64,000 nt of DNA, taken from positions 180,145 to 244,144 of the forward strand of contig CAVPOP010000001.1 of NCBI GenBank assembly GCA_963707115.1, in the 5' to 3' direction. Under the pieces are notes generated by a model that was given only the letters and a program-made list of their open reading frames with translations, made no database searches and had not been told where the DNA came from. The stretch is from an uncultured Gammaproteobacteria bacterium (GTDB lineage: Bacteria > Pseudomonadota > Gammaproteobacteria > Steroidobacterales > Steroidobacteraceae). Each line of letters opens with the position of its first letter. Position 1 is the first letter of the stretch. The position numbers and the translations under genes are program-made. Of this stretch, positions 42,780-62,615 are shown piece after piece.

Positions 42780-43292
42780 GTGCCCCCTAGCCGCTCTCGT
42801 ACCACATCTGGCCCAGTCACAGTTCGCCGCTCGGGCGCGAGGGCCGCTTCGCTTGCCGCGCTGCTGCTGCCATTGCTAGCCGGAGCATTGGCCGGCCCTG
42901 CCTGGGCCGCCCTCGGGGACACGGTGGCTGCCCTAAGCTCGGACTCTCAGGCGCTGCAGGCCAGTCCACGTGTTGCCGCGCACGCGGCGTTCACGGTCCA
43001 CGAACTGCAGACGCCCACCGGCACGCTGATCCGGGAATTCGCCGCGCCGTCGGGTGTGGTGTTTGCCGTCTCCTGGCGCGGTCCGTTCAAGCCCAGCATG
43101 GGGCTGCTGCTGGGCCGCTACATGGGCGTGTATGCGCGCGCGCCGCGCAGCCCGGGATCGACGCGTTCGCACCTCAGCATCGAGCAACCGGATCTGGTTG
43201 TGCACGCGGGAGGCCACATGCGCGCGTTTGCCGGCATCGCCTATATACCGCAATTGCTCCCCGCCAACGTGGTCGAGGCGGACCTGCAATGA
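42780..43292 (+). CDS. Secreted protein of unknown function (DUF2844-like)
   Basis: GTG at 42780 gives a signal peptide (...AASLAALLLPLLAGALAGPAWA/ALGD). The stop overlaps the start of the next gene. Family name recalled, not verified. Confidence 0.45.
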   Translation: MPPSRSRTTSGPVTVRRSGARAASLAALLLPLLAGALAGPAWAALGDTVAALSSDSQALQASPRVAAHAAFTVHELQTPTGTLIREFAAPSGVVFAVSWRGPFKPSMGLLLGRYMGVYARAPRSPGSTRSHLSIEQPDLVVHAGGHMRAFAGIAYIPQLLPANVVEADLQ

Positions 43293-44569
43293 GCGCACGC
43301 CAAATCCCGACGGCGGCCCTCGGCGCGCTGTCGCTGATTCTGCTCCACGCCTGTGGCGGCGGCGCGGGCAGCTCCAGCGCGCCGGCGCCACCGGCTCTCC
43401 CCACCGGCACCAATGTCGCGCCCCTCGTCGTCGATGCGGGGCCGGCGCAATTGGGCGTCAACATACCCTCGGTCAGCGTCACGATCTGTGAGCCGGGGAC
43501 CGCCAATTGCCAGACCATCGACCACATCCTGGTCGACACGGGTTCGAGCGGCTTACGGATCATCGCTTCGGCGTTCAACTCCGCTGCCGTCAACTTGCCG
43601 GCCGCCACCACTCCGGCCGGCGATCCGCTGTTCGAATGCTTCACCTTCGCGGACGGTTATAGCTGGGGGAGCGTGCGCGCGGCCGACATCCAGCTGGCGG
43701 ACGGCAGCGCCGCCAATTTGCGGATACAGCTGATCGCCGATCCGGCGATCCCCACCGCGCCCACCGACTGTTCCGAGGATCCGACCGCAAATCCGCCCAG
43801 TCCCATGTCCCCGCAGAACACGGTCGCGGAAGTGGGCGCGAACGGCATACTGGGGGTGAGTGTCTTCCTGCAGGACTGCGGCAGCGTGTGCGAAACGATA
43901 GCCAATCCCAATGGCCGCGGCTTCTACTACGCCTGTCCGGCCGGCGTCTGCGCCGGCACCACGGTTCTTGTGGCCGAGCAGGTGCAGAATCCGGTAAGCA
44001 AATTTGCGACCAATAACAACGGCGTCACCGTCGTCTTGCCGGCAATCACTGCGGTGGGCCAGGACACCGTCAGCGGCGCGCTGGTCTTGGGGATCGACAG
44101 CCAGTCCAACAACCAGCTCGGCAGTGCGGCAGTCCTGGGAGTGGATCCGTTCTCGGGCAGTTTCAACGTCGTCTTCAATGGCAACACCTACTCGCTGGGC
44201 GGATCCATTGATTCAGGCTCCAATGGAAACTTCTTCACCGACACGGCGTTAGCGGCCTGTACCAGCTCCCTTTATCCCGGGTGGTATTGCCCCGCCACCG
44301 CGGTAACGCTGTCGGCGACCAACCAAGGCGTCGGCAGCAGCAGTGCGACCTCCACCGTGTCGTTCAGTGTCGCGAGCATTTCCGCGCTCAGCAATGCCAA
44401 TCCCAGCTTTGCCGCGTACGACAACATTGCCGGCACGCTCTTCCAGCCATTTGTGGGCTTCGACTGGGGCTTGCCGTTCTTCTATGGACGCAGCGTTTCC
44501 GTCGCCTTCGAAGGGCAGCCGACCGCGGCCGGCAACGGGCCGTTCGTCGCCTACGCGGATTTCCTGTAG
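43289..44569 (+). CDS. Lipoprotein with pepsin-like (two D-T/S-G-S) architecture (DUF3443-like)
   Basis: Lipobox LLHAC. Motifs in pepsin-like order: HILVDTGSSGLRI (Asp ~83), ANGILGVS (~186), GGSIDSGSNGNFF (Asp ~308) and C-terminal FDWGLPFFYGRSVSVAFE. Confidence 0.5.
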   Translation: MSARQIPTAALGALSLILLHACGGGAGSSSAPAPPALPTGTNVAPLVVDAGPAQLGVNIPSVSVTICEPGTANCQTIDHILVDTGSSGLRIIASAFNSAAVNLPAATTPAGDPLFECFTFADGYSWGSVRAADIQLADGSAANLRIQLIADPAIPTAPTDCSEDPTANPPSPMSPQNTVAEVGANGILGVSVFLQDCGSVCETIANPNGRGFYYACPAGVCAGTTVLVAEQVQNPVSKFATNNNGVTVVLPAITAVGQDTVSGALVLGIDSQSNNQLGSAAVLGVDPFSGSFNVVFNGNTYSLGGSIDSGSNGNFFTDTALAACTSSLYPGWYCPATAVTLSATNQGVGSSSATSTVSFSVASISALSNANPSFAAYDNIAGTLFQPFVGFDWGLPFFYGRSVSVAFEGQPTAAGNGPFVAYADFL

Positions 44570-44571: not shown

Positions 44572-45207
44572 TCAGCGTTCGCCGTTGAGGAAGCGTACGA
44601 AGCGGTCCAGCGCTTGGCGCTGGTCGTCCCACAGCGTGTAGTTCAGCACCTCATCCCCCACGGTCGTCTGCACCTGCAGGCTCCGCGCGGCCGCAATAAA
44701 GCGCAGCGTGGCCAGGTCAGTCGGAAACACCAGTGGCTTGACCGTCCTTCCGGTGGGCGCGCCCACGGATCGAACAATGCCGAAATCCGCGGGAGTCCCG
44801 GCGCTCGTATCCAGCCGGATGCGCCGGTCGTCGGCCACCAGAACCAGGACATCGGCCACGGGCCTGGCCGGCTCATAGCGCGCGTCCAGCGTCGACCAGA
44901 CGTAGGCGATAAGCAGACAGTCCCGCTTGCCGCCGCGGTTCACGGTCGCGGCGGTCATGGTCACATAATCGCGTAGATTTGCGGCCCGTTCGCTCCGGTC
45001 CCGGGCGAACAGCAGCGGTTTGTCCATCGCCGTAACGGTGGCACCGCTCTGCTCATCGAGGTACTCGTAAGGCTGCTTGCCGTGTGCGGCCGCCGGGTCG
45101 ACGGCGGCAGGCCCGCTGGCGCACGCAGCAAGCAGCGCCGTGGTTCCACACACGGTGAACAAACTGCGACAGCGCGGCACTCGGGCGCGGCCTTGGCTAG
45201 AACGCAA
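44572..45207 (-). CDS. Lipoprotein of unknown function, translationally coupled to the upstream OM protein gene
   Basis: Lipobox TALLAAC/ASG. 211 aa. The start overlaps the stop of the 845-aa OMP gene by 11 nt. Confidence 0.5.
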   Translation of the reverse strand: MRSSQGRARVPRCRSLFTVCGTTALLAACASGPAAVDPAAAHGKQPYEYLDEQSGATVTAMDKPLLFARDRSERAANLRDYVTMTAATVNRGGKRDCLLIAYVWSTLDARYEPARPVADVLVLVADDRRIRLDTSAGTPADFGIVRSVGAPTGRTVKPLVFPTDLATLRFIAAARSLQVQTTVGDEVLNYTLWDDQRQALDRFVRFLNGER

Positions 45208-47707
45208 TGCGGTAGGACATGCTCACATAATAGCGTCTTGTGTTCTGGGTCTGAAGCGAGGAATCGCGTTTGCCAAACTCGTAACCCCCTTCGATCTGCA
45301 CCAGATTGCGCCCGCGCTGCCAGTCCAGGAGCGCCGAGGGCACCAGGCTGAGCTGGTTGCTGCCGTCGCTCGACAGCTGCTGGTGTATCACTGACAGACG
45401 CGGCCCGAGCCGCCACGTTGCCCCCACAGGGAAGCGCTCGGTCACGCTGGCCGAGTAGGTCTTCGCCGTCTGCGTGTCAGCGTACAGCACGCTCAGGACA
45501 CTGAAATCGCCCTCTTTCCAGACGTTGGACCCATACAGCTGTGCCTGGTATGCCGTCTGCAGGCCGCTCGCCTCCTGCGCGGGCACGATGGTGCCGACGC
45601 CATTGGTAGCCCCGAACTGCTGGGCGCTCACCGTCGCCGCAAACTGGTAGCGCGGCCCCAGCGGCCGCGATACGGTCACACTGTAGCTGCTGGAGCTCGA
45701 GGTGTTATCGCGCGCATTCTGATAGATGGCATCGGTGGGCAGGCCGATTGATTGGTAGAATTGTGCCAATTCATCCAGCGTGCTGAACGGCTGTCCAATC
45801 AGCGCATTTTGCGTCGTCAGCACCGGCGCATTGCGTCGCTCGGCGTCGAAACTCAGGTTCCAGCGCGCGGGCAGCTGCATCGTGCCCAGGATCGCCGCGG
45901 TGTTGAGTGACTGGTAGAAGATGTCGTAGTCCAGCAGTGCGGTAACCGAGGCGCTCGGCAGCAGCAGCCTCAGCTGTGTGCCCACCGCCTCTCGGTCCGT
46001 GAAGCCGTCGCTGCGCCATTGGGTATAAAACAGACTCGCGTCCCAGTGCTTGCCGACGGGCGTATAGGGTACGGCCACTGACCAGAACTTTCGGGCCGTC
46101 TGCAATCCCATATTGGTCTGCTCGACCGGGAAACCGGCAATCAGGTTAATCCCGATGTCCGGCCGCACCTGCCAGGCGGCAAACAATCCGTCAAACGTGC
46201 CGAGTGCGCCGTCGAAATTTTGCACCTGCCTGCCGAGCCTGGCGAACACGCTGGCCACGCGATCGTCGATTTCGACCGAGGCGATGCTGACGCGGGTCGA
46301 GGCGTCGTTGGCGCTGGTGGGGGAATTACCGGCGAAATTCTTGGCGTAGGTCAGACTGGTACGCGCCAGCAGATCAAAGCGCTGCCCGCGCCGGCGCGCC
46401 AGCACGTCGAGGTCGTTGTACAGCGAGTTAGAACTCTGGGACTGTGAGGTGGGGGCGGTACCCGAGCCAGGCGCCCCGGGCGTTACGGTGTTGTCCACCC
46501 GCGTGCTGTCGTAGCGGTACGTCTGGCCAAAGCCGCCCTCGAGGCTCCACAGCTTCGCGCTCTCCGCGCCGCCTCCGGTGCCGGTGCGCGCCGCGGTGGA
46601 AGCGGCGCGCAGTGTGGCCAAGCGGCGTGCGACCCGATCGGCCGCCTCGCCCGTTGGGTAGCGGCGCAGGTACTCCTCGTATTCGGCCTTGGCATGCGCG
46701 AGTTGCCCGGAACGTTCCCGCGCCAGGCCCAGCAGCTCTTGCATCTGCGCGCGCTGCGGAAACTCGGGCTGGCGCTGCAGTTTGGTCAGCAGCGGCACGG
46801 CTTTGGGGTAATCACGGGCGTTCATTGCGGCGCGTGCCTGCGCCACCAGCTCGGCCAGGTCCGCCGCTGGCAGCGGCGGGTCGGCGCCCATGGGCTCGAC
46901 GGCGGGCAGCGCTTCGCCACCGCCCCGCGTCGTGGCGGCATCATCGCCGATGGCCAACCAGGCCCGCGGGTAATCGGTGAGGGCCTGGTTGAGAATGCGC
47001 TCGGCATCCGCGCGCTTGTCGAAGGGCCCGGCGCGCAGCCGGTACCAGGTCACCCCGTCTACGACGGCCTGACTGACGAACACGGACACCTTGAGCTGGT
47101 CGCGTGCGCGCTGAATCGCCTCGGGACGGTAGTCGGCGGGCTGCGATTCCAGGTTGACGGCGTAGCTGCTGGCCGGACCGCTCGGCTCGTTCAGGGTGAT
47201 CTTGCCGTGACCGCGGGCCCGATCGATCAAACGCAATCGCATCCCGCGCAGGTCCGCACCTTGCGCTATCACGAAGCGCTCCGATTTGCGAAAGCTGAAA
47301 GCCAGCGTCAGCTGCCCGGGCACGTCCGAGTCGACGCGCACGTTGTTGATAATGTTGGCGCCCCCCGACAGCGGCGGCAGCTCCCCAACCGTCTGGGTGG
47401 CAAGCGAAAATCCACAATCGCCCTGCGGCTTTAACTGGATGCGCAGCTCCTTGCCCTCGGCCGCCGGCTGATGCGTGATGTAGCGCACCGAGCAATTGAA
47501 CTGCACGGCGATGTCGGCCTGATCGTCGTGATCGGTGAGTTCGACCAGGTCGACGATGCGGGTCGGGCCGTTAGCGCCGATCTGCGCGCGCGCCGTGACC
47601 CAAGGCAGGACGCCCATCAATAGCAGCGTTGCGTGCAGCAGCGCCGCGCCCCGGGACCGTGCGGGCGCGGCGGAGCCCCGAGCGGGTGCTGCCCGGGGCC
47701 GGTTCAT
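45197..47707 (-). CDS. Outer-membrane protein: AMIN-like + SPOR + TPR periplasmic region fused to a C-terminal beta-barrel
   Basis: Signal peptide (MNRPRAAP...LLLMGVLPWVTARAQ). N-terminal beta-rich AMIN-like block. SPOR-like YAVNLES...VVDGVTWYRLRAGPFDKRADAERIL. TPR-like helices (YPKAVPLLTKL..., AEYEEYLRRYP). About 450 aa of amphipathic strands end in YYVSMSYRIAF, an OMP-type terminal Phe. Alternative ATG at 47734. Confidence 0.6.
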   Translation of the reverse strand: MNRPRAAPARGSAAPARSRGAALLHATLLLMGVLPWVTARAQIGANGPTRIVDLVELTDHDDQADIAVQFNCSVRYITHQPAAEGKELRIQLKPQGDCGFSLATQTVGELPPLSGGANIINNVRVDSDVPGQLTLAFSFRKSERFVIAQGADLRGMRLRLIDRARGHGKITLNEPSGPASSYAVNLESQPADYRPEAIQRARDQLKVSVFVSQAVVDGVTWYRLRAGPFDKRADAERILNQALTDYPRAWLAIGDDAATTRGGGEALPAVEPMGADPPLPAADLAELVAQARAAMNARDYPKAVPLLTKLQRQPEFPQRAQMQELLGLARERSGQLAHAKAEYEEYLRRYPTGEAADRVARRLATLRAASTAARTGTGGGAESAKLWSLEGGFGQTYRYDSTRVDNTVTPGAPGSGTAPTSQSQSSNSLYNDLDVLARRRGQRFDLLARTSLTYAKNFAGNSPTSANDASTRVSIASVEIDDRVASVFARLGRQVQNFDGALGTFDGLFAAWQVRPDIGINLIAGFPVEQTNMGLQTARKFWSVAVPYTPVGKHWDASLFYTQWRSDGFTDREAVGTQLRLLLPSASVTALLDYDIFYQSLNTAAILGTMQLPARWNLSFDAERRNAPVLTTQNALIGQPFSTLDELAQFYQSIGLPTDAIYQNARDNTSSSSSYSVTVSRPLGPRYQFAATVSAQQFGATNGVGTIVPAQEASGLQTAYQAQLYGSNVWKEGDFSVLSVLYADTQTAKTYSASVTERFPVGATWRLGPRLSVIHQQLSSDGSNQLSLVPSALLDWQRGRNLVQIEGGYEFGKRDSSLQTQNTRRYYVSMSYRIAF

Positions 47708-48015
47708 TGCGGTCACTGGCGCGCCTTCACTCAATGCGATGCCTGCTGCGGAAAAACTGCCTCAATCCACATTATGCAAAGGCGTCCCCGTTCGGCGGTG
47801 TGATGGGACTCGCACCCATACCAATCGCCGAGACACGGAGAACCACGTCACACAATGATTGCGCGTCACACCATACAGCGGCGTGCGGGTGCGACTCGAC
47901 TTGTCGCCGATTGACGCCTTGTCGCCATTTGACGTCGCGCAATCGGGGGAGCCACGCGCGGCGCCCGAACGACTAGGGCGCCGTTACGGGCGGATTCGTT
48001 CGCAGTGCGGTGCTG

Positions 48016-51000
48016 CTAATGCTTGAACGCCACGTTTGACGGCCGGTGGTACGGTCCCGGCTGTGGCTTGACGACCGTCTTCGCGGTGGCGTCGCTGTAG
48101 ACATGGCAGGCGCCGGCGCAATCGCGCAGCTCGCTCGAGGTGTACAGGATGCCGCCGCTCGTCTTCGGGTGCGCGACGGGCTTGAAGTCCTTGGTGTGGC
48201 AACCCGCACAGCTTCCGGCATTGGCCGGAGCCGGCCAGGGTATCAGGTCCGAATTGCTGGTATGACATGCGGTGCAGGCCAGCGCCGCCTTGTGATCGCC
48301 CGGATAAGCGCTCCCGGTATGCATGAAATGCGTCTGCGCCCAGTCCGGATAGCTGTGGCAGGTCGCGCAATCGAGTTTGCTGTTCATGTGAGTCGCCGGC
48401 ACGCCGAGCGCAACGGCATTGTTGTGACAGCTCACACACTGGCGGGTCAGAGTCGTGTGATCGACCTTGGCCGGCTTCCAGGCAAGAGTCCCGTGGCAGC
48501 TGTCGCACTGCGCGCCGGTCGGCACGTGGCTCGAGGGCAGACCCATGGCATGCACGCTGTCGTGGCAGCTCCTGCAGGTGTGCGCCGCCACTCCGGCATG
48601 GTCGAAGCGCGCGGGCGTCCAGGCATTCGTCGTATGGCAGGTCTCGCAGGTGTTGCTGCTCGCGATGTGGCTCATCGACTTGCCCTGCGCCACTCTGCCG
48701 TTGTGGCAGCTGGCACAACTGCCCTGCACCTGGGCGTGATCGACCATAACCACCGGCAGCCAGGCGTGCGTGTTGTGGCAGCTGCCACAGCCGTTGCTGC
48801 TCGCTATGTGGTCGGCGGGCTTGCCTGCGCCCTGCGCCGAGCTGTGGCAGGTCACGCACGGCGTAGCCGCCGCGCGCGTGTGATTGAATCCGCCCACCGC
48901 GGGCACCAGCGCGGCCGCGCCGCCCAGCGCCGAGCCTGCGCGGGTGAGTCCGCCGCCGGTGCCGGCCGCCGCAGCGCCCGGGCGTATGGCCCTCTTGTCG
49001 CGGGAGTTGTGGCAACCCGAGCCGCCGCAGTCCTGGCCCGCATGATGGTTGGCGCTGTCGCGTACCCACAGTCTCACGCCGGTGTTGGTCTTCCACTTCA
49101 TGCCCAATTCGTGACAACTCATGCAGGTGATGGTGGTCACGTAGGCGTGTTTCATGACCGTGCCCGCAAAGGTCGTGAAGTTGGTGGGGCTGTGGCACAG
49201 CTCGCAGGCGACGTTCAGACTCGATCCGTTGGGCGGGTTGGAAGGAATGTGCCCGGTCGCACCGGACGGCGGCTGCTTCAGGGTGGGCGGAGCCATGTTG
49301 GCGAACGACAGGCCGTAGGCGTGGCAGGTGGCGCAGCCCTTGGTAATGCCGGTGTGCCCGGTCGCGCCCATCACGTACACCGCGTAGTTGCCCGCGGTGG
49401 TGTGACACTGCGCGCACGGGGCGGTGGTCGGAATGTGGTTGGCCGGCTTGGATCCCCCCGACACGTTGCTTGAGAACGTCGGGGTATTCGTGTGACAGCC
49501 GCTGCAGTCGCCCGTGGTCGGGTGACTCTTATCGAGCGTCGCATTCGGCCGCGAGTCCCCGGCCGCGGTCGAGGTGCTGGCGATCATCCCGACATACGGG
49601 GCGGTCTCGTGGCAGCTGGTACACGCGCCGACCTGCCCGGCCACGGTGGTATGGCCGGCCACGTTCAGGGTCGGGCTGTTGAGGTTCGCCGCACCGATCT
49701 TGAAGCCCCCGGCCGTGAGCTTGGCGGTGGTGTGGCAGCCCGAGCCGTCGCAATCGAGATTGCCGATCGGGATGTGATTTATCCCGGTGGTGCTCACGAT
49801 CGTGATATTCGCAAAGGTGTTGGCCACCGCGGGCGCGTGGCAGCTCAGGCAGTTGGTCACGCCCTGGTGGGTGCCGGTCACCGAGTAGACGGCATTGTTG
49901 CCCGCGGTGGTGTGGCACTGCGCGCACGGGGCCGTGGTCGGTATGTGATTCGCAGGCTTCGCGTTGCCGGTCTGGTTCGTCGTGAACGTCGGGGTCGTGG
50001 TATGGCAGCCGTTGCAGTCGCCCGTGGTCGGGTGACTCTTATCAAGCGTCGCATTCGGCCGCGAGTCCCCTGCCACGGTCGAGGTGCTGGCGATCATCCC
50101 CACATAGGGCGCGGACTGGTGGCACGTCTGACAGGCCCCGACCTGCCCCGACACGGTGTTATGGCCGGCCACGTTCAAGGTCGGGGCGCTGACGCTTGCC
50201 GCGCCAATCTTGAACCCCCCCGCGGTGACCTTGGCTGTGCTGTGACAGCCCGATCCGTTGCAATCGAGGTTACCGATCGGGATGTGATTTATCCCGGTGG
50301 TGCTCACGATCGTGATATTCGCAAAGGTGTTGGCCACCGCAGGCGCGTGGCAGCTCAGGCAGTTGGTCACGCCCTGGTGGGTGCCGGTCACCGAGTAGAC
50401 GGCATTGTTGCCCACGGTGGTGTGACACTGCGCGCACGGGGCCGTGGTCGGTATGTGATTTGCAGGCTTCGCGTTGCCAGTCTGGTCCGTCGTGAACGTC
50501 GGGGTTGTGGTATGGCAACCGCTGCAGTCGCCCGTGGTCGGGTGACTCTTGTCCAGGGTGGCATTGGGCCGCGAGTCCCCGGCCGTGCTTGCGGTGCTGG
50601 CGATCATCCCCACGTAAGGCGCAGTCTCATGACAGGTGGTGCAGGCGGGTACCTTCCCCGCCACGGTGGTGTGTCCGGTCACGTTCAGGGTCGGCGCTGA
50701 AATGTTGGCCGCACCGAGCCTGAAACCACCGGCGGTGACCTTGGCTGTGCTGTGACAGCCCGAGCCGTTGCAATCCAGGTTGCCGATCGGCATGTGGTTG
50801 GTGCTGGCCGTGCCCACGATGGTGACGTTGGCCCAGCCACCCGCGGGCGGCGGCCCATGGCAGCTCAGGCAGTTACTCACGCCCTGGTGCGTGCCGCTCA
50901 CCGAATAGAGCGCGTAGTTGCCCGCGGTGGTGTGGCATTGGGAGCAGGTGGCGGTGGTCGGAATGTGGTTGGCAGGTTTCGCGCCCTGGGACACGTCCGA

Positions 51001-55347: not shown

Positions 55348-55429
55348 CGCCGCTAGCGCCGCGAGGCGCAGTGCGCTTGCAGACCAAACCGATCGGCGCC
55401 TTGTTGGGGAAGTGGTTTGCAGATCCCGC

Positions 55430-56995
55430 CTACCTTGCGCGCCCGCCCTGGAAGGTCACCGTCGTATGACAGCGCTCGCAGCGCCGTCCAAATTGACCAT
55501 CATGCACGTCATCCTTCTGATGACAGGAAATACAGTCCGGCGAAAGCTTCACTTCGGCCGCAGGCTGTCGATGGCAGCCGGCACACTTGAGCTTGGCGTG
55601 CGCACCAAACAGTCCAAAGCCAGTTTGCTTGAAATGATCGTACTCCCAGAGTGCCCAACCATTCGGGCTATGACAACTGTCGCACTTTTCGCTCAGTCCC
55701 CCCTTGTGCACGTCGTCCTTACGGTGGCAGTCGACACAGCGCGACTTGGCCTCGCCAAACGCCTGCGTGCGATGGCACTGGGCGCAACTCACCACATTAT
55801 GTAAACCGAGCAGCGGATAGACCGTCAGGTCGTGGTCGAAATTGATCTGGCTGCGCCAGTCCTGCTGCGTGTGGCAACTGTCGCAGGAGGTGTGGAAGCT
55901 CTTGCCGTGAGGACTGGCCGCCCGATGGCAGCCGTTGCAGTCCGTGGCCAGCTTTTGAGTGGCCGCGTTCGCGGTATGGCACACGTGGCAATCGAGCTTG
56001 GCGTGTATGCCCAGCAGCGCGAATTTTGTCTTCGCGAGGTGGTCGTACTTGACCGGCCGCCAGACCTCGTTGTCATGGCAGTCGCCGCACTTGCCGCCAA
56101 AGCGCCCCGCGTGAGAATCATCCGCCCGATGGCAGCCGTAGCAGTCCTTGGGAATCTTGTCCTTGTACACGCCACTGCGGTGGCAGCCCAGGCAGTCGAT
56201 CTTGGCGTGCTGACCGAGCAGTGCGAAACCGGTCTCCTTCTCATGGTCGAACTTCGCCGTCTTCCATTCGGTGGTCGTGTGGCACTTGCCGCAGTCGCTG
56301 CCACGTTCGCCTCGATGCGCGTCATCCGTCAAGTGACAACCGGCACAGGTCTTTGGGCCGCCCTTGTAATGGCCGCCCAAGTGACAGCTCCCGCAGCTCA
56401 GGGTCTGGTGCGCTCCGGTCAGAGGAAACTCCGTCTTGGCATGATCAAAGCGCGCCGCGGTCCAGTTATCGGAGCTATGGCAATCATTGCAGGTGGTCGC
56501 GAGCTGGCCCTGGTGGTAATCGTCCTTCTTGTGGCAGCTGATACATGCGGACGACGCCTTGCGGTAGGCCTCGCCGGTCTTGTGGCAACTATCGCAGCCC
56601 AGCGTGCGGTGTGCGCCGGCCAGCGGGAAATCGGTGCGCTCGTGGTCGAATTCCGCGATATTCAAGCGCACGATGTCAGCCCCGCGCCCCAGGTGTTCGG
56701 TGTGACAGCCGACGCACTTGCCCGTGCCCGCATTGGCCATCAGCCCGTGGTACCCCTTGTGCTCGCGTATGTCGGCGGCAATTGGTTTGTGGCAATCGAG
56801 GCATAGCGCGCTCTGGCGCATTCGGTCCGTGCGGTCGTGACAATTACTGCACCCCTCTTCCAGTTTGGCATGCGCCGTGCTCAGCGGACCGGGCATCAGC
56901 AGGCTCTCCACTGCGGCCGCATGGGCGCCGGGCGCGGTGATCGTGCCGGCGGCCAGCAGCATGCCCACCAACCACCCGCCTCCAGTCCGTCGCAT
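55430..56995 (-). CDS. 21-haem periplasmic cytochrome built of seven c7/c3-like trihaem modules
   Basis: Signal peptide (MRRTGGGWLVGMLLAAGTITAPGAHA). 21 CXXCH by hand count in 521 aa. The module F(D/N)H..T.F.L.G.H....C..CH ... C..CH..DD.H.G.....C..CH recurs seven times. Confidence 0.9.
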   Translation of the reverse strand: MRRTGGGWLVGMLLAAGTITAPGAHAAAVESLLMPGPLSTAHAKLEEGCSNCHDRTDRMRQSALCLDCHKPIAADIREHKGYHGLMANAGTGKCVGCHTEHLGRGADIVRLNIAEFDHERTDFPLAGAHRTLGCDSCHKTGEAYRKASSACISCHKKDDYHQGQLATTCNDCHSSDNWTAARFDHAKTEFPLTGAHQTLSCGSCHLGGHYKGGPKTCAGCHLTDDAHRGERGSDCGKCHTTTEWKTAKFDHEKETGFALLGQHAKIDCLGCHRSGVYKDKIPKDCYGCHRADDSHAGRFGGKCGDCHDNEVWRPVKYDHLAKTKFALLGIHAKLDCHVCHTANAATQKLATDCNGCHRAASPHGKSFHTSCDSCHTQQDWRSQINFDHDLTVYPLLGLHNVVSCAQCHRTQAFGEAKSRCVDCHRKDDVHKGGLSEKCDSCHSPNGWALWEYDHFKQTGFGLFGAHAKLKCAGCHRQPAAEVKLSPDCISCHQKDDVHDGQFGRRCERCHTTVTFQGGRAR

Positions 56996-57016
56996 CGGGC
57001 CCGCAGTCCTGGGCGA

Positions 57017-57859
57017 CTAATACACGGTCACTGAAATCACGTGCACGATTCCGGCAACCAGCGTCATGATGAAGAACGGCACGTGGGCCACGTGCCACAG
57101 GGAAAAGAGTTTCACGTAGTAGCCGTGCTCGCGCACGCGGCGCACCGCGTCCAGACGCCGCGTGGCGTAGCTCGTGGCGTTGGCAGTCAGGCGTTGGCCG
57201 TGCGCCGCGAGCACGGGGGACTCGTGCGCCGCCTGCAGCACCATGTCACGGATCTCACTGTCCAAACGCCAACGCGCCAGCGCCGACCGCATGCCAACGG
57301 TGACCGGCTGCACCAATGCACCCAGCGGCGTCTTGGCCGGACGGAAGAGCCGCTGTTCCTCGCGCTCGATCGCCTCCAGGTAGCCCGGCAGCAGCGTGAT
57401 GGTGTTGCTCTGCTGGCGCAACTGCTCGGCGACCGCCTTCAACTCCTCGAGTGTGGTGCTGTGCTCGTGCCATTCGCCGTACACCCTGCTGTAGATGTAC
57501 CGGCCAATTAGGCCGCTGCCGGATACGGCCAACATGCAGAACAGGGCCACGTTGCTGTTGGTGGCGCCGAGCGAAAAATTCGAGTGAAACAAGATCAGCA
57601 GCGGCCCGACAATGCCGAGCGTCATGTGGATGCGATACCAGATAGGTACGCCACCAATGACGTGTAGCCATTGGGCGCGCTTGCGTGCCGGATATAGCAG
57701 CAGCACCAGCATCAGCGACCCCCCCACGATCCCGAGCGCGTATCCGAGTCCGCGCGTCGGCGTGATATAGCGCTCCAAGTGCGCGTTGTATCCCCACAGC
57801 AGCGCCACCACCACAGCGAAGCCAAAGACGCGCACCGGCGTTAGCATTCGCTCCGTCAT
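57017..57859 (-). CDS. Integral membrane protein with two HX13H pairs (putative di-haem b-type cytochrome)
   Basis: About 5 TM helices. TM3 is RIHMTLGIVGPLLILFH and TM5 is AHVPFFIMTLVAGIVH, each with two His exactly 13 residues apart. A helical soluble loop of about 110 aa separates TM4 and TM5. The gene lies 21 nt upstream of the 21-haem gene and 9 nt downstream of the CcmI-like gene. Confidence 0.55.
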   Translation of the reverse strand: MTERMLTPVRVFGFAVVVALLWGYNAHLERYITPTRGLGYALGIVGGSLMLVLLLYPARKRAQWLHVIGGVPIWYRIHMTLGIVGPLLILFHSNFSLGATNSNVALFCMLAVSGSGLIGRYIYSRVYGEWHEHSTTLEELKAVAEQLRQQSNTITLLPGYLEAIEREEQRLFRPAKTPLGALVQPVTVGMRSALARWRLDSEIRDMVLQAAHESPVLAAHGQRLTANATSYATRRLDAVRRVREHGYYVKLFSLWHVAHVPFFIMTLVAGIVHVISVTVY

Positions 57860-57868
57860 TGCCGCCGC

Positions 57869-59134
57869 CTAGCCGATCACTCGCTGAATCACCACCCGCA
57901 CCGGTTTGCCCGCGGCGGGATCAAACTGGGCCGTCACACCCTGAAAATCGCCGGCGGCGGGCATCGCCTGGCCGGTCCGTGAAGTGCGGGCCTCAATGGT
58001 CACAGCGCCCGCCGTCGAGAGCTTGCGTGTCGGCACCATGGCCTGGGAATCGTCGAGCTGAAACGGCAGCGGCCAGGTGCCGGTCGTGGTCTTGATGATG
58101 GCCACGGGCGGGCCCGCGGAGTTGACGGATTTCGCGACAATGAAGAGCGTCAGCCCGGCCGGAATCCGGCCCTTGAGCGCGTCCGCCACCACCACTTCAC
58201 CGCGCACGCTCATGCCGCTTGCGCCTCCCGCCGGAGGCGCCGGTGGCGCGGCCGCGCCGGCCAGGCGCTGGTCCTCGGCAAGGTTTGCGGCGATGACCTT
58301 CGCGTCATCGGAGTTCGGCGGCAACACCGCGGCCAGTTGCTTCCAACTGTCCACAGCCGCCTGGTATTGGTGCGTTTCGTGCAGCATGCTGGCATTGAGC
58401 CACAAGGCCTTGGGATGCTGGGGATTGAGGCGCAGCGCATTGTTCAGGTAGGTCGTGGGTGGCCCGACCAGCGAATTACCATTGAGCGTGCCCACCACAT
58501 CCGCATAGTCCGCCCAGGTGTCGGCAGTCATCTCGTTGCGCGCGGCGAGTTTGGCGTAGATGTCGCGAGCTTTGGCGAAGTTGCGCTGGGCACGTGCCGC
58601 CTGCGCGGCCTCCACCAGCTTGAGCGCCTCGGCGGACAACGGCGCCGGGGCTGGCGCCGGCGGCGCCGCGGTCGTGACCGCCGGGTTCGGCGCGCTGGCG
58701 GTCAGGCGTTTCTGGCGTGCGGCGGCCGCATCGGCGGTCCGCCCGAGAAACTCATAGGACTTGGCCAGCAATTCCCAGTCCCCGTCGGTGCCGCCGTTCG
58801 CGGCAAGGCGCCGCTCCAGACCGGATATGGCGGTATCCATGGAACCGGCGCTCTGCTTTTGCGCGCCCGTCGTGCCGGCGCCGGGAGCGCCGCTTGGGCC
58901 GCTCATGGCACCCACCGGAGCGGCGTCACGATCGTTGAGTTGCGGGCTGCCCAGTCTTATGTAAAGTGCCAAGGCGACTGCCATCACGGCAACGCCCGCG
59001 ACCGGCGTCCAGCGGGGCAAAGCGCTCAGCAGTGCCGTGCGCGGCCTTCCGGCGAGCCACGGATACACCACAAACAGCAGCGCAATAACGGCCAGGGCCC
59101 CGATAGCGAAGTAAAAGCCATTACCGAGGCTCAT
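57869..59134 (-). CDS. CcmI/CycH-like c-type cytochrome biogenesis (apocytochrome chaperone) protein
   Basis: Two N-terminal TM helices (FYFAIGALAVIALLFVVYPWLAGR; TPVAGVAVMAVALALYIRLG), TPR-like repeats, and the C-terminal block LTLFIVAKSVNSAGPPVAIIKT...LPFQLDDSQAM....LS....VTIEARTSRTGQA typical of CcmI/CcmH C-terminal domains. No other ccm genes in the window. Confidence 0.65.
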   Translation of the reverse strand: MSLGNGFYFAIGALAVIALLFVVYPWLAGRPRTALLSALPRWTPVAGVAVMAVALALYIRLGSPQLNDRDAAPVGAMSGPSGAPGAGTTGAQKQSAGSMDTAISGLERRLAANGGTDGDWELLAKSYEFLGRTADAAAARQKRLTASAPNPAVTTAAPPAPAPAPLSAEALKLVEAAQAARAQRNFAKARDIYAKLAARNEMTADTWADYADVVGTLNGNSLVGPPTTYLNNALRLNPQHPKALWLNASMLHETHQYQAAVDSWKQLAAVLPPNSDDAKVIAANLAEDQRLAGAAAPPAPPAGGASGMSVRGEVVVADALKGRIPAGLTLFIVAKSVNSAGPPVAIIKTTTGTWPLPFQLDDSQAMVPTRKLSTAGAVTIEARTSRTGQAMPAAGDFQGVTAQFDPAAGKPVRVVIQRVIG

Positions 59135-59205
59135 GCCATACCATGCCTATACATAACGACGGGCGTACTATCACAGATTGTAACGCCTTTTGTCGCAGGC
59201 TCACG

Positions 59206-59250
59206 ATGTCGCCACTGCCGGACAGTTCACTTTCTGGCGACATGTTGACA
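59206..59250. promoter_or_regulatory. 9-bp inverted repeat plus TTGACA in the divergent intergenic region of the cytochrome locus
   Basis: ATGTCGCCA (59206..59214) / TGGCGACAT (59235..59243), separated by 20 nt and immediately followed by TTGACA (59245..59250). I found no convincing -10 box. Confidence 0.35.
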
Positions 59251-59304
59251 CGTGCGCAGCCTCACGGAACCTTAGGCGTACGCTGAAGTAGTGTTTGCCG
59301 GTTA

Positions 59305-60645
59305 GTGGCCATTGGGCCCGTGAGATTTGACCTAATGAAATTGAGCCTAATCGCCGTATACGCCGCGCCGTTCATGTTGATCATGTTCTGGTATCTGCGG
59401 CGGCATTTTCGCTTTGAGAAGATCAGCCGCGCAGTGCACTTCGAGGCGAAGGAAGCCGGCCTGCTCGAGCCCGCCTCCCTGCACCCGGTCATCGACCCGG
59501 TGCGCTGTCTGGGTTGCGGCGCGTGCGTGCGCGCGTGCCCGGAGTACCCGCAGCATACCGTGCTTGGCCTGATCAACAACAAAGCACAGCTGGTCAACCC
59601 CACAGAATGTATCGGTCATGGCGCCTGCAAGTCTGCCTGCCCGGTTGATGCCATTTCGCTGGTGTTTGGCACCGCGACGCGCGGAATCGACCTGCCGGTG
59701 CTGCTGCCGAATTTTGAGACCAACGTCCCGGGCGTATTCATTGCCGGCGAACTGGGCGGCATGGGGCTGATACGGAACGCGTTGATTCAGGGAATCCAGG
59801 CCGTTGAAGCCATCCAGAAGAAGAACCAGCGCGCCCCCGGCAAGCGCCTGGACGTGCTCATCGTGGGCGCCGGCCCGGCCGGCATGGCCGCCTCACTCAC
59901 GGCCAAGTCGCTGAAACTTACCTACCGCACGGTTGAACAGGAGTCGCTCGGAGGCTGCGTATTCAAATACCCGCGCGGCAAACTGGTCATGACGGCGCCG
60001 GTCGAGCTGCCGCTGGTGGGCCGCTTTCACTTCCGCCACACCTCCAAAGAGGCCCTGCTCAAAGTCTGGACCGAGATCATGCAGCGCGAACAGCTGCGGA
60101 TCCAGACCAACGAGCGCGTGGCCTCCATTGAAAAGGACGGCGATGGGTTCATTGTCCGCACGTCCAAGGCCGCCTACCGCGCCTCGACGGTGCTGCTCGC
60201 GATCGGGCGGCGCGGCACACCCCGCAAACTGGCCGTGCCGGGTGAGGAACTGCCCAAGGTCGTGTACCGGCTGGTCGATCCCGACCAGTACATCGGCCAG
60301 GAGGTGCTCGTGGTCGGTGGCGGGGACAGCGCCCTGGAAGCGGCCGCGAGCGTCGCGGAGGTCTCGGGTACGCAGGTCACGCTCTCCTATCGCGGCGACG
60401 CCTTCGGTCGGGCCAAGCCCAGGAACCGTCAGCGGGTTGCACAGGCTGCAGATCGCGGCAATCTGAAGCTATTGCTGTCCTCGAGCGTCAGTGAAATCAA
60501 CCATGACCTGGTGATTCTCGAACATGGCGGCACGCAGGTCGCGATCAAGAACGAGGCGGTTATCATCAGCGCTGGCGGCGTCCTGCCGAACGAATTCCTA
60601 AAGACGGTCGGCATCCGAGTCGAAACCAAATACGGCACCGCCTGA
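59305..60645 (+). CDS. Membrane-anchored 2x[4Fe-4S] ferredoxin-domain / FAD-NAD(P)H oxidoreductase
   Basis: N-terminal TM helix followed by a basic stretch (YLRRHFRFEK, so the catalytic part is predicted cytoplasmic). CLGCGACVRACP and CIGHGACKSACP cluster motifs. VLIVGAGPAGMAA (FAD) and VLVVGGGDSALEAA (NAD(P)H) Rossmann motifs. Confidence 0.8.
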   Translation: MAIGPVRFDLMKLSLIAVYAAPFMLIMFWYLRRHFRFEKISRAVHFEAKEAGLLEPASLHPVIDPVRCLGCGACVRACPEYPQHTVLGLINNKAQLVNPTECIGHGACKSACPVDAISLVFGTATRGIDLPVLLPNFETNVPGVFIAGELGGMGLIRNALIQGIQAVEAIQKKNQRAPGKRLDVLIVGAGPAGMAASLTAKSLKLTYRTVEQESLGGCVFKYPRGKLVMTAPVELPLVGRFHFRHTSKEALLKVWTEIMQREQLRIQTNERVASIEKDGDGFIVRTSKAAYRASTVLLAIGRRGTPRKLAVPGEELPKVVYRLVDPDQYIGQEVLVVGGGDSALEAAASVAEVSGTQVTLSYRGDAFGRAKPRNRQRVAQAADRGNLKLLLSSSVSEINHDLVILEHGGTQVAIKNEAVIISAGGVLPNEFLKTVGIRVETKYGTA

Positions 60646-62615
60646 TGTGCGCCGTGACGCGCTGGGCGCTGGCGCTGCTGGTGCTGCTTGCCATTATTGA
60701 CGGCGCTCCGGCGCGAGCAAAAGCCGCGCACCCGCTCGAGAGCGCCAAGCTGGCGCTGAGAACCCGCGACTATCCGGCGGCGCTGGCGCAGCTGCAACAA
60801 AGCGCCACCGCCGGCGATGCCCAGGCGCAGCTCCTGCTTGGCCTGGTCAACCTCAATGGCGTGGGCACCAGCGTGAATCAGCCCGCGGCCGAGAGCTGGT
60901 TGAGCAAGAGCGCCGCTCAAGGCAACGCGACCGCAGCCTACGTGCTGGCCGCGCTCTACGCCCGCCGGAGCGATGCGCCACCCGGTGCATCGCAGGCGAT
61001 GTTGCACAAGGCGGCTGCCCTCGGATCGACCGAAGCGATCGAGGACCTGCGTGCCGGCCGCGAACCACTCAGCCCGGATTGGGCGGGTCTCTCGGACAGT
61101 GCGCTGCGCACCGATCTGGCGATCTACAGTGCCCGCAATGCCGATATCGAATGCCTGAAGGCCATGGGAACCGCGGTGAAGGATCTGCGCGACCCGTTTG
61201 GCAGCTCGCTGCTCGCGCATGCGGTAGCCACCGGGGCCCTCAGCTCCGCACAGCTGCTGATCCAAGCCGGAAGCGACGTGAATCACGCCGACAGTTTCGG
61301 CGTCACCCCCCTGATGCTGGCGGCCCGCCTGGAAACCACGCAAATGCTCGAATTTCTGCTGACCAAGGGCGCCAGCGTGGCGGCCGTTGATCAAGCGAGT
61401 CGCACGGCCCTGTTCTACGCCGCGCGAGCCAACCGGCCGCAGGCCGTGGCGAAACTGGTGCAGGCCGGCGCGAAGCTCGACGCCACCGACAGCGGCGACT
61501 ATACGGCGCTCGACGCCGCACTCAGCGCGGACGCCGACCAGGCCGCAACGCAACTGCGGTCGCTCGGGGCCAGGAACCTGGTCGCGCACGCCGCCCGCGA
61601 TAGCAACGTGGGCAAGTTTGATTCCGCCCGTCCGGGCGACCTGTATCGCGGTTGGCCGGTCGTGGCCCTGGCGGTCGCGCGCAATGACGTGAACTCGGTG
61701 CGTACACTGCTCGCCGATGGCGCCGACCCCGACAGTCGCACCAGCCAGGGAGACACCCTCTTGCACGTCGCGCTCCACGTCGGCTCCGAGGCAACGCTCA
61801 AGGCGCTGCTGGCGGCGCACGCGAATCCAAAGCTGGCTGACAAGCGCGGTCGGACGGTCTTGGTGCTGGCAGCAACCCGCGGCGAACTCAGCCTCGTCAG
61901 CGCCCTGCTGGCCGGCCAGGTCCCTGCCGACACACGCGCCACCGGGGAATCCACGCCACTGCTGGCAGCCGTGCGGGCCGGACATGTCGAGATCGCCCAG
62001 AGCCTGCTCGCCGCCGGTGCCCGGGCCGACCTGGCCGACGAGCACGGCGATACCCCGTTACTGGCGGCCGCGACCAGTGGCAACGCCGCGCTCGTCAAGG
62101 TCCTGCTGACCGGCGGCGCCTCAGCGCGGCTTGCGGATCCGCGCGGTGAAACCCCGCTGTGGCGCGCAGCCCATAAGGGCTCAGCAGACGCCACGCTTCT
62201 GCTGCTCGAGGCCGGCGCCGAGGTGGACGCCGCCGACCGCGAAGGGCGTACGCCGTTGATGTGCGCGATTGTCGCAGGCCAGGACCAAGTGGCCTCGATC
62301 CTGCTCCAGGCTCACGCGCGTGTCGATGCGAAGGCGGCAAACGGGGATACGCCGCTGATGATGGCCGCGGCCTTCGGGAGCGGCGCCCTGGTGCATTCGC
62401 TGCTGCAGCGCCCGGGCGACGTCAATGCCAGCAACCGTGACGGCGATACGGCGCTAATCGCAGCCAGCCGGAACGGCAACAAGGCGGCCGTCAAGGTGCT
62501 GCTGGCCGGAGGCGCCAGCACGGCGCTGCGCAACAGCAAGCGGGCCACGGCCGCGGACGTGGCGCGAGACCGGGGCTTCGGTGATTTGGCCGAACTGATT
62601 GGCGGCAAGGGATAG
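60645..62615 (+). CDS. Exported Sel1-repeat / ankyrin-repeat protein
   Basis: Signal peptide (WALALLVLLAIIDGAPARA). Sel1-like AQLLLGLVNLNGVGTSVNQPAAESWLSKSAAQGNATAAYVLAALY. Twelve or more ankyrin units follow (G.TPL..AA..G....V..LL..GA..). The start overlaps the upstream stop (TGATG). Confidence 0.85.
   Translation: MCAVTRWALALLVLLAIIDGAPARAKAAHPLESAKLALRTRDYPAALAQLQQSATAGDAQAQLLLGLVNLNGVGTSVNQPAAESWLSKSAAQGNATAAYVLAALYARRSDAPPGASQAMLHKAAALGSTEAIEDLRAGREPLSPDWAGLSDSALRTDLAIYSARNADIECLKAMGTAVKDLRDPFGSSLLAHAVATGALSSAQLLIQAGSDVNHADSFGVTPLMLAARLETTQMLEFLLTKGASVAAVDQASRTALFYAARANRPQAVAKLVQAGAKLDATDSGDYTALDAALSADADQAATQLRSLGARNLVAHAARDSNVGKFDSARPGDLYRGWPVVALAVARNDVNSVRTLLADGADPDSRTSQGDTLLHVALHVGSEATLKALLAAHANPKLADKRGRTVLVLAATRGELSLVSALLAGQVPADTRATGESTPLLAAVRAGHVEIAQSLLAAGARADLADEHGDTPLLAAATSGNAALVKVLLTGGASARLADPRGETPLWRAAHKGSADATLLLLEAGAEVDAADREGRTPLMCAIVAGQDQVASILLQAHARVDAKAANGDTPLMMAAAFGSGALVHSLLQRPGDVNASNRDGDTALIAASRNGNKAAVKVLLAGGASTALRNSKRATAADVARDRGFGDLAELIGGKG

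Follow-up and report, generated by a model that had tools for sequence, protein, structure and literature searches.

A large PCC3 multihaem cytochrome cluster from Steroidobacteraceae and its putative NAD(P)H-type flavoprotein partner

We analysed a 64,000-nt stretch of DNA from an uncultured gammaproteobacterium of the Steroidobacteraceae (assembly GCA_963707115.1, contig CAVPOP010000001.1, positions 180,145 to 244,144; hereafter the window), in which a block of eight genes encodes two multihaem cytochromes (MHCs), an outer-membrane barrel, an inner-membrane protein (IMP), a divergently transcribed Fe-S flavoprotein and three accessory proteins. An initial annotation, made from the sequence alone, had presented this block as a candidate undescribed trans-envelope electron-transfer system. 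[quoted passage not shown] The locus therefore belongs to an extracellular electron transfer (EET) system that has been described though not characterised, which in spirit refutes the reading as undescribed: it is a new, unusually large member of PCC3 and not a categorically new system. What appears to be new, within the searchable literature, is a conserved cytoplasmic NAD(P)H-type Fe-S flavoprotein partner of PCC3, sometimes fused to the IMP, as well as a periplasmic ankyrin/Sel1 companion and lineage-specific cytochrome-maturation genes.

Layout of the cluster and assignment to PCC3

A six-frame list of open reading frames (ORFs) and their translations returned all eight ORFs of the initial annotation with the same coordinates and strands, together with the close gene spacing and the divergent two-gene unit that it had pointed out (Table 1). 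Gaps of 9 nt separate the CcmI-like gene from the IMP gene, 21 nt the IMP gene from that of the 21-haem cytochrome (c21), and 82 nt the latter from the giant cytochrome gene, while the porin and small exported genes overlap by 11 nt. On the opposite strand, the flavoprotein stop and the ankyrin start overlap as TGATG, an arrangement of translational coupling. A consensus promoter and terminator scan of the locus gave matches at chance number only, so the operon structure and the function of the 170-nt divergent region are deduced from spacing and arrangement.

Table 1 Features of the cluster, in window coordinates
Feature	Coordinates	Strand	Description
Small exported protein (g1)	44572..45207	-	Lipobox LAAC; no Pfam/NCBIfam match
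Outer-membrane 'porin' (g2)	45197..47734	-	Signal peptide, beta-sandwich, SPOR, TPR, 22-strand beta-barrel; ends ...YRIAF
Giant repeat multihaem cytochrome	48016..55347	-	2443 aa, 75 haem motifs; true start probably upstream, up to ~55422
21-haem cytochrome c (c21)	55430..56995	-	521 aa, Sec signal peptide, periplasmic PCC3 MHC
PCC3 inner-membrane protein (IMP)	57017..57859	-	280 aa, five TM helices; putative di-haem b electron carrier
CcmI/CycH-like apocytochrome chaperone	57869..59134	-	N-terminal pair of TM helices, TPR, Ig-like domain; leads the operon
Divergent intergenic region, 170 nt	59135..59304	none	Between the CcmI-like and flavoprotein operons; presumed shared regulatory region
Membrane-anchored Fe-S flavoprotein	59305..60645	+	TM helix, ferredoxin domain, thioredoxin-reductase-fold FAD/NAD(P)H domain
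Exported Sel1/ankyrin-repeat protein (g8)	60645..62615	+	Pfam Ank_2 3e-64 + Sel1

The published PCC3 clusters include Slit_0867-0870 and Slit_1446-1449 of Sideroxydans lithotrophicus ES-1 and that of Leptothrix cholodnii SP-6. Their extracellular MHCs carry a median of 34 haems and up to 85; the periplasmic MHCs have a median of 21 haems (21, 24 or 27) at about 26 aa per haem, and the IMPs are proteins of ~300 aa with five transmembrane (TM) helices, an SGXXG motif on TM4 and WX3HX13H motifs on TM3 and TM5 (PMC5566968). The core gene order in the window (IMP, 21-haem cytochrome, 75-haem cytochrome and porin, running from 57859 to 45197 on the minus strand) is that of Slit_1446-1449, where 1446 is the IMP, 1447 the periplasmic cytochrome, 1448 the extracellular cytochrome and 1449 the porin. 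The window IMP agrees with the published family in size, in its five TM helices, and in having SGXXG and two WX3HX13H motifs. c21 shares the haem count, the low ratio of residues to haem and repeats of ~67 aa; the R. pachyptila symbiont has a periplasmic MHC with 21 haems, seven repeats of 66 aa and 26 aa per haem (He et al. 2017). The giant cytochrome has the Thr/Ser/Ala/Gly-rich composition, tandem repeats and very high haem count of the extracellular MHCs, and the AlphaFold model of the porin has a 22-strand barrel, within the 22-42 strands predicted among PCC3 porins (22 for that of Leptothrix SP-6). We are therefore confident that the locus is a PCC3 cluster, an assignment made by matching published features (gene order, motifs, haem counts, repeats and barrel). 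Papers published since then have handled PCC3 as established, though functionally unverified.

An inner-membrane protein with four invariant histidines

The AlphaFold model of the IMP, built on an alignment of 149 sequences (pLDDT 81.5), is all-helical, with TM helices at about residues 8-25, 38-56, 71-92, 100-122 and 250-279 and an Arg-rich helical insert of ~120 aa between TM4 and TM5. The sequence carries W74-x3-H78-x13-H92 in TM3, S115-G-L-I-G119 in TM4 and W255-x3-H259-x13-H273 in TM5. The His pairs on two helices that had caught attention at the outset proved invariant: H78/H92 and H259/H273 are kept across all 149 homologues, and the full-length family representatives have both WX3HX13H motifs in 105 of 110 cases and SGxxG in 110 of 110.

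Positive residues are found in loops 2 and 4, including an RKR loop after TM2, and thus the N-terminus, the RKR loop and the TM4-TM5 insert are likely cytoplasmic. An N-in orientation is also required by the domain order of the natural fusions described below, in which the IMP domain comes after a cytoplasmic enzyme. With this topology, H78 and H259 would lie close to the cytoplasmic side of the membrane and H92 and H273 close to its periplasmic side, the classic arrangement for two stacked b haems.

The family is large and lacks a profile of its own. At least 3,129 relatives were found at E <= 1e-3 among the scored candidates, and its 2,863 representative clusters at 50% identity include none with a Pfam domain; the window IMP matches neither Pfam nor NCBIfam. 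A PDB sequence profile search with the IMP gave chance matches only. DUF4405, which co-hits cytochromes b of the HyaC/FdoI type (PMC12727194), weakly matches 47 of the 149 members, always under the cut-off (best E 0.0065), and Ni_hydr_CYTB matches three.

A membrane-anchored Fe-S flavoprotein

The divergent gene encodes a protein with Fer4_10 (8e-12) and Pyr_redox_3 (3e-43) domains. Its N-terminal helix is followed by RRHFRFEK and is not preceded by a twin-arginine, which argues for a cytoplasmic enzyme tethered to the membrane. Tat export was considered and set aside on the same features, the twin-arginine being absent before the hydrophobic segment and the positive residues lying after it. 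The ferredoxin domain contains a CxxCxxCxxxCP motif and then C102-x2-H105-x2-C108-x3-C112P. The His105-type second motif is conserved in all 73 orthologues and is invariant from Steroidobacterales to Bacteroidota. The cluster ligands are conserved, except that Ser or Ala replaces the second Cys in the first motif in some lineages. The initial description of a membrane-anchored flavoprotein with 2x[4Fe-4S] is therefore right in its domains and its TM anchor and approximate in its clusters, because the second motif has His at the second-Cys position. His-ligated clusters are typically exit points of Fe-S chains, as is the distal cluster of [NiFe]-hydrogenases.

The FAD/NAD(P)H domain keeps GAGPAG, GGGDSALEAA and LSYR motifs, and among the 73 orthologues it shows no conserved redox CxxC pair. 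The closest solved structures are YpdA/Bdr and ferredoxin-NADP reductases of the thioredoxin reductase (TrxR) type. The protein shares this fold class, but membership of the YpdA or thioredoxin reductase families was rejected on the missing Cys pair and on scores of 158.5 bits against TIGR04018 (cut-off 339.9) and 76 bits against TIGR01292 (cut-off 343). A disulfide-reductase role was likewise ruled out by the missing conserved CxxC.

Conservation of the block and of the flavoprotein-IMP pair

A profile scan covering one genome per species matched more than 550 genomes, of which the 80 best loci were examined; overall, about 170 related loci were compared, with the window proteins run against them by tblastn. 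All 80 best IMP loci come from Steroidobacterales/Steroidobacteraceae/Nevskiaceae-like metagenome-assembled genomes, the closest being 88% identical, which places the window in that group. The recurring order is ankyrin gene and flavoprotein in one direction, then, divergently, CcmI-like gene, IMP, c21, giant cytochrome, porin and, in some loci, the small protein. This order is kept down to 48% IMP identity as the flanks change (peptide deformylase versus DUF3443). Recurrence of the block across 80 genome loci, and in others further removed, is far beyond chance and upholds the view of one conserved trans-envelope multihaem system.

Among the 76 loci with at least 4.5 kb upstream of the IMP gene, the flavoprotein is found beside the IMP in 72, the ankyrin-like protein in 71 and the CcmI-like gene (by tblastn) in 66. 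c21 adjoins the IMP gene in 81 of 83 evaluable loci, and the porin is present in 56 of the 60 with enough downstream DNA. The four loci that lack the flavoprotein are L072, L081 and two orphan IMP paralogues.

These two orphans (L054 10001-10780 and L080 10001-10801) are second IMP copies, 49-56% identical, in hosts that also have a full PCC3 cluster (L029, L055), with no cytochrome or flavoprotein gene nearby. The L054 copy sits between a GGDEF protein and a Rieske oxygenase, with no redox partner among its neighbours.

The pairing also holds across phyla. In seven of eight IMP lineages with less than 50% mutual identity, a gene of ~435 aa with Fer4 and Pyr_redox_3 domains adjoins the IMP gene, and in these lineages the flavoprotein is 53-61% identical, against 35-41% for the IMP. 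Plasmid pEMTOL02 of Emticicia oligotrophica (Bacteroidota) carries ccsA, an IMP-like gene, the flavoprotein, a 23-haem cytochrome and a cytochrome of more than 1000 aa; its IMP-like protein, at 24% identity, carries the two WX3HX13H motifs as well as SGVVG, and its flavoprotein is 46% identical over 438 aa (E 1e-137) and retains CVGHGAC. The flavoprotein-IMP module is thus found in both Pseudomonadota and Bacteroidota.

The association also holds in the reverse direction. A flavoprotein alignment run against metagenomes returned 80 loci, which were searched with an IMP hidden Markov model (HMM). An IMP-like ORF lies in 17 of the 19 full-length Fer4-flavoprotein loci with at least 2.5 kb on each side and, at 1.2 kb or more on each side, in 24 of 32; loci of FAD-domain-only paralogues (less than 40% identity) have one in 1 of 11. 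Across 72,556 plasmids, the sole full-length flavoprotein homologue is that of Emticicia, beside its IMP-like gene.

Moreover, two single metagenomic ORFs join the two proteins in one chain (L148 5629-8112, 828 aa; L145 484-2697, 738 aa), in the order TM helix, both ferredoxin motifs (including CVGHGxC), FAD/NAD(P) domain and C-terminal IMP domain with two WX3HX13H motifs. The L148 fusion is followed by ORFs with 26 and 19 haems. On plasmids of Alteromonas macleodii, an unrelated membrane-anchored reductase with FAD_binding_6, NAD_binding_1 and 2Fe-2S (Fer2) domains precedes an IMP-like gene that adjoins a 7-haem c3. As genomic context, this is about as strong as it gets for a physical and functional flavoprotein-IMP partnership, and we consider it likely that the two are real partners in electron transfer.

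A constant 21-haem cytochrome and an expanding giant

Counting motifs confirmed both the 21-haem relay of seven trihaem units and the giant of about 75 haems that had been read from the sequence. c21 has 21 CXXCH motifs in seven trihaem (c7-type) units of 67-68 aa, at 24.8 aa per haem, and in nearly all of 90 loci the orthologue is ~521-523 aa long with 21 haems, 24 or 27 haems being occasional. The motifs of the giant are 63 CXXCH, one CX3CH and 11 CX4CH, and the protein is composed of 13.3% T, 12.4% A, 11.0% G and 8.8% S, together 45.5%. Its gene contains ten tandem units of 507-510 nt (~170 aa) with five haem motifs each, and a recent two-unit duplication of 1017 nt with an exact run of 788 nt. 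The program TRF, with a period limit of 500 nt, overlooks these 510-nt repeats; a separate repeat search recovered them. Both cytochromes match cytochrome c7/c3 families of Pfam/NCBIfam, and the Pfam family of MtrC/MtrF domains II/IV matches the giant at 3e-51 over 11 stretches. The second MHC has 18-87 haems across the loci, and set against the constancy of c21 this indicates that repeat expansion acts on the outer cytochrome only.

The ATG at 55347 gives the giant a poor signal peptide, and in-frame codons upstream of it encode a good one, RRRSVWSASALRLAALAAMACLPLWGPAESAHA; the closest homologue, L001, begins its giant with an ATG at that upstream position. In the window, no further ATG and no GTG or TTG stands upstream of this start (55347-55430), and CTG codons are found at 55422 and 55371. 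A non-canonical start, a mutation or a sequencing error are possible explanations.

Two second-cytochrome ORFs, L001 12432-20843 and L051 4936-13404, have at least 85 and at least 87 haem motifs and run past the retrieved DNA; the 85-haem record given in He et al. 2017 would thereby be matched or surpassed. Downstream of the IMP in the metagenome/Logan contigs L089 and L090, the deposited gene calls are small minus-strand ORFs, and the plus strand holds intact 27- and 18-haem ORFs. Automatic callers thus seem to misread low-complexity cytochrome genes, and PCC3 may be under-counted. For the same reason L090 was rejected as a cytochrome-less flavoprotein and IMP locus, since ORFs of 27 and 18 haems follow its IMP.

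Outer-membrane and accessory proteins

The porin has Pfam matches to SPOR (5e-7) and TPR_16 and no match to an MtrB model. In its AlphaFold model (pLDDT 79.5), residues 396-844 form the 22-strand barrel, which ends in a C-terminal Phe and matches the barrels of FimD/PapC, AlgE and MOMP in Foldseek (E 1e-11 to 1e-6), all of them generic outer-membrane barrels. An AMIN/SPOR/TPR barrel had been proposed for this gene; SPOR, TPR and barrel stand, and the AMIN part does not, residues 61-170 being a beta-sandwich in the model with no Pfam match. The identical public porin protein P0398 (806 aa) is called from Met40, losing the signal peptide; a start at Met10 (MNRPRAAPARG...ARA|QIG) yields a normal Sec signal.

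The small exported protein, which had been taken for a lipoprotein, does have a lipobox in the window, but the lipobox is present in only 13 of 38 orthologues. In 43 of 60 loci an orthologue follows the porin gene or adjoins DUF3443, and the protein is an accessory component specific to Steroidobacterales.

Of the other accessory genes, both the apocytochrome chaperone and the Sel1/ankyrin protein were correctly named. The former matches PF23892 Ig_CycH at 2.8e-25 (88.6 bits against a cut-off of 27) and TPR_CcmH_CycH below threshold (25.7 bits, cut-off 42); with hydrophobic helices at residues ~6-28 and ~42-60, it has the N-terminal TM pair, TPR and Ig-like CycH domain of CcmI/CycH chaperones. 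Shorter CycH-TPR genes occur in L088 and L089, and in the Emticicia cluster ccsA takes the place of the CcmI-like gene, directly upstream of the IMP gene. The ankyrin/Sel1 protein has Pfam Sel1 and ankyrin repeats, and 55 of 69 orthologues begin with an N-terminal hydrophobic signal; in distant lineages, homologues of ~670-690 aa with 29-33% identity usually follow the flavoprotein.

Surroundings of the cluster

The 281-nt gap between giant and porin genes contains an 18-nt direct repeat, CTTGTCGCCAATTGACGC, in 1.9 copies (47900-47934), which could serve for protein binding or belong to an internal promoter. A DUF2844 and DUF3443 gene pair abuts the cluster at 42588-44569 (+); the DUF3443 lipoprotein has VDTGSSG and IDSGSNG motifs and by eye resembles a two-lobed aspartic protease. 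In other Steroidobacterales loci this pair is found at the opposite end of the cluster, beside the ankyrin gene, so it travels with the cluster despite rearrangement; in distant lineages no such pair was seen close to the cluster.

Beyond this pair, at 39708-42570 (+), a BipA/TypA GTPase is split into an ORF at 39708-41474 (GTP_EFTU) and an overlapping one at 41452-42570 (EFG_C, BipA_C). This implies a frameshift near 41.4 kb, from an assembly indel or in a pseudogene, and single-base errors may therefore exist elsewhere in the window. G+C is ~0.60-0.62 over 1-18000, a part with an FG-GAP/ASPIC protein, a P-type ATPase and an amino-acid permease, and then ~0.64-0.68 over 18000-64000. An IS110-family transposase lies at 31115-32134. 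No ccm or type II secretion genes occur elsewhere in the window, the remainder being housekeeping.

A candidate electron path and its alternatives

We propose that PCC3 is fed by a two-component NOX-like module and works outward, driven by NAD(P)H, a scheme whose direction and acceptor are deduced and which we regard as about evenly balanced between right and wrong. NAD(P)H would be oxidised in the cytoplasm by the flavoprotein, and electrons would pass from FAD to two ferredoxin-type Fe-S clusters, one of them with the conserved His at a Cys ligand position. From there they would reach a cytoplasmic-side haem b of the IMP (H78/H259), cross the membrane to a periplasmic-side haem b (H92/H273) and run along the 21-haem wire, which probably plugs the barrel, to the 75-haem cytochrome at or beyond the surface and on to an external acceptor. 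Candidate acceptors are Fe(III) or Mn(IV) oxides, humics, O2 or a partner cell. The flavoprotein and the IMP would together form a quinone-bypassing oxidoreductase, in some organisms as one fused chain, and the CcmI-like and ankyrin/Sel1 proteins may be maturation or scaffolding factors. The entry from NAD(P)H through Fe-S to haem b, offered as a speculation at the outset, gains strong comparative support from the two-way neighbourhood conservation, the two fusions and the one non-orthologous replacement. An FAD domain without a redox CxxC, akin to the TrxR-type ferredoxin-NADP reductases and YpdA, would also fit such a reductase.

The outward direction follows from energetic considerations. 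A passive two-haem conduit cannot push electrons inward against the membrane potential to cofactors at about -320 mV, and no plausible extracellular donor, such as Fe(II), reaches that potential; outward flow is downhill and aided by the membrane potential. Such a dissipative, quinone-independent outlet would suit redox balancing, reductive Fe/Mn mobilisation, humic reduction or superoxide production over energy-conserving respiration.

In the published PCC3 model, electrons are instead taken up from extracellular Fe(II) or another solid donor by way of the giant and 21-haem cytochromes, the IMP is a quinone-reactive cytochrome b supplying the quinone pool, and the flavoprotein would be separate or regulatory. 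PCC3 was first found among iron oxidisers, Sideroxydans and Leptothrix commonly carry it, and the IMP of one PCC3 copy in Sideroxydans CL21 rose during iron oxidation. Di-haem cytochromes b such as HyaC and FdnI are usually quinone-reactive, and the only recurrent weak Pfam match of the IMP family, DUF4405, is the one that co-occurs with a family of the HyaC/FdoI type. A purely quinone-linked IMP nevertheless leaves unexplained the constant, twice-fused flavoprotein and its replacement by a different reductase in Alteromonas, and inward transfer to the low-potential cofactors of the flavoprotein appears energetically implausible. The hosts found here are Steroidobacterales, which are not known iron oxidisers. 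Both PCC3 clusters of Sideroxydans ES-1 are down-regulated on Fe(II) (PMC8788666), which speaks against uptake and is consistent with the outward scheme. On balance we consider the uptake model rather unlikely for this locus.

The same wiring might also serve another purpose, as an NAD(P)H oxidase making extracellular superoxide for Mn(II) oxidation or iron acquisition, or as a 96-haem charge buffer, in either case in place of a respiratory pathway to minerals. The architecture parallels that of NOX and FRE, which reduce O2 or Fe(III) chelates, and an outward flow from NAD(P)H that conserves no energy would agree with such a role. However, a 96-haem wire with a dedicated barrel would be a costly source of superoxide, and bis-His c-type haems are poor O2 reductants. 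Among the PCC3 hosts listed by He et al. are the Mn oxidisers Erythrobacter and Leptothrix as well as aerobic symbionts (PMC5566968), and Hoover et al. 2023 proposed a capacitor role for the many haems. We rate these purposes as quite unlikely. Less probable still, and in our estimation very unlikely, is a maturation or maintenance module, in which flavoprotein and IMP would send NAD(P)H reducing power to the periplasm to keep the 96 CXXCH sites or the haem iron reduced, together with the CcmI-like and ankyrin/Sel1 proteins, and the working conduit would join respiration elsewhere. A cytochrome c biogenesis gene does lie in the block (the CcmI-like gene in most loci, CycH-TPR genes in L088 and L089, ccsA in Emticicia), and the FAD domain has the thioredoxin-reductase/YpdA fold. 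Yet the flavoprotein has no redox-active CxxC, and thiol-reducing pathways normally use CcdA/DsbD rather than haem b proteins. The IMP is also tightly coupled to c21, both in spacing here and in adjacency across loci, and clusters of IMP-like gene, reductase and small c3 exist where the assembly load is modest, as with the 7-haem cytochrome of Alteromonas.

Several observations weigh against the outward NAD(P)H-driven scheme itself. None of the 149 IMP members is matched by Pfam Ferric_reduct (PF01794), even at E <= 10, and Foldseek gives no significant neighbour for the IMP model, none of its 172 matches reaching E <= 0.001. Cytochrome b561 ranks first among them at E 0.36 and TM-score 0.2-0.27, which we do not take as evidence, and NOX, STEAP and MsrQ structures are absent from the 172. 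The NOX likeness of the IMP is therefore functional, and not a demonstrated homology, and haem b binding is proposed from the four invariant His residues. L072 and L081 have cytochrome genes and no nearby flavoprotein, and the pairing counts cover the retrieved loci. Neighbourhood and fusion are evidence of partnership, and not of direction or donor; ferredoxin, or some other donor or acceptor, could serve the flavoprotein. For the giant, a surface location is assumed on the strength of published work. In the proposal of He et al., electrons are exchanged between the IMP and quinones, and a quinone site in the IMP stays compatible with the data. Finally, outward flow from NAD(P)H would conserve no energy and dissipate the membrane potential, leaving no obvious benefit to the cell, and spending NAD(P)H in this way would seem wasteful in the autotrophic iron oxidisers that also have PCC3.

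PCC3 may be, wholly or in part, not an iron-oxidation conduit to the quinone pool but the outer part of a quinone-independent NAD(P)H-driven electron exporter with a new NOX-like entry, a tentative reading that we place slightly short of an even chance. That entry may combine a TrxR-fold FAD/NAD(P)H domain, a ferredoxin domain in which a His at a cluster-ligand position is invariant, and a new five-TM di-haem b family.

Significance

Since 2017, PCC3 has figured as a candidate iron oxidase in Gallionellaceae, in Leptothrix and in tubeworm symbionts and rhizobia, and it holds the record haem counts among known cytochromes, while transcriptomics in Sideroxydans argues against iron oxidation. The present analysis turns the candidate iron oxidase into a specific, testable hypothesis of opposite polarity. 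Were the flavoprotein and IMP the true entry, the direction of electron flow in the accepted PCC3 model would reverse; the IMP family, with thousands of sequences and no Pfam model, would be a new class of transmembrane electron carrier; and bacteria would possess a quinone-free NOX-like route from NAD(P)H to the cell surface. This would bear on the redox cycling of iron, manganese and humics in soil by abundant heterotrophs, Steroidobacterales among them, on the source of bacterial extracellular superoxide, and on the design of engineered electron export.

Comparison with known systems

The initial annotation had distinguished the locus from MtrCAB, PioAB/MtoAB, Cyc2 and the Geobacter Pcc systems, and curated HMM cut-offs bear this out, with sub-threshold matches only. 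Membership of MtrCAB/MtoAB/PioAB was thus ruled out: against TIGR03508 (MtrA/DmsE, cut-off 192.2) the giant scores 44.7 bits and c21 23 bits, and the score against TIGR03507 (OmcA/MtrC, cut-off 209.3) is 42 bits. Those systems share the principle of a periplasmic multihaem wire in an outer-membrane barrel, with or without a surface cytochrome. Their barrel, however, has 26 strands, against 22 with SPOR/TPR in the window; their haems number 10 + 10, against 21 + 75; and the inner-membrane partner here is not a quinol dehydrogenase of the CymA/NapC type. The Geobacter pathway of ImcH/CbcL, PpcA and OmaB/OmbB/OmcB and the Ndh2-based flavin EET of Listeria both run via quinones. They resemble the present locus in having a dedicated inner-membrane entry, which in Listeria is fed by a specialised NADH dehydrogenase, but the pairing and fusions described here point to direct transfer from flavoprotein to haem b.

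He et al. had already compared the PCC3 IMP with the ferric-reductase/NOX domain and with cytochrome b (PMC5566968). In common with NOX, FRE, SpNOX and MsrQ with Fre, the IMP and its partner have, as predicted from their sequences, His pairs 13 residues apart on TM3 and TM5 and a cytoplasmic NAD(P)H-flavin module. Like MsrQ and Fre, a two-component NOX-like system (PMC5676040), they occur as two proteins, and in L145 and L148, like NOX, as one chain. The IMP differs in having five TM helices in place of six and no detectable homology. The dehydrogenase is of TrxR fold with an Fe-S ferredoxin domain and not of FNR fold, the Alteromonas replacement being the exception, and the proposed acceptor is a multihaem cytochrome c, as opposed to O2, Fe(III) or MsrP; SpNOX for its part reduces cytochrome c directly (PMC5676040).

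He et al. 2017 (Supplementary Table 6) also list PCC4 and 'MHC + IMP + other redox protein' clusters, in which five-TM IMPs with two HX13H motifs stand beside MHCs and redox proteins of 412-425 or 608-805 aa. These sizes match the two classes of reductase found here, the Fer4-flavoprotein of ~435 aa and the FNR-type of 644 aa, a correspondence that we infer. These clusters, however, are mostly without porin or surface cytochrome, their IMPs reportedly show no significant similarity to those of PCC3, and no link was drawn between PCC3 and the nature of their redox proteins.

Within PCC3 itself, the window differs in host, Steroidobacterales being an order not found in the available supplementary text of He et al. 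2017, and in size, its 75 haems standing near the published maximum of 85, which relatives with at least 85-87 reach. FAD, ferredoxin and flavoproteins go unmentioned in the main text of that paper (PMC5566968) and in the available text of Hoover et al. 2023, and our literature searches found no paper tying PCC3 to such a flavoprotein. The flavoprotein, ankyrin/Sel1, CcmI-like and small exported genes thus lie outside the published description of PCC3. The published model also sends electrons inward to quinones, whereas the partnership described here would send them from NAD(P)H outward through the IMP to the surface.

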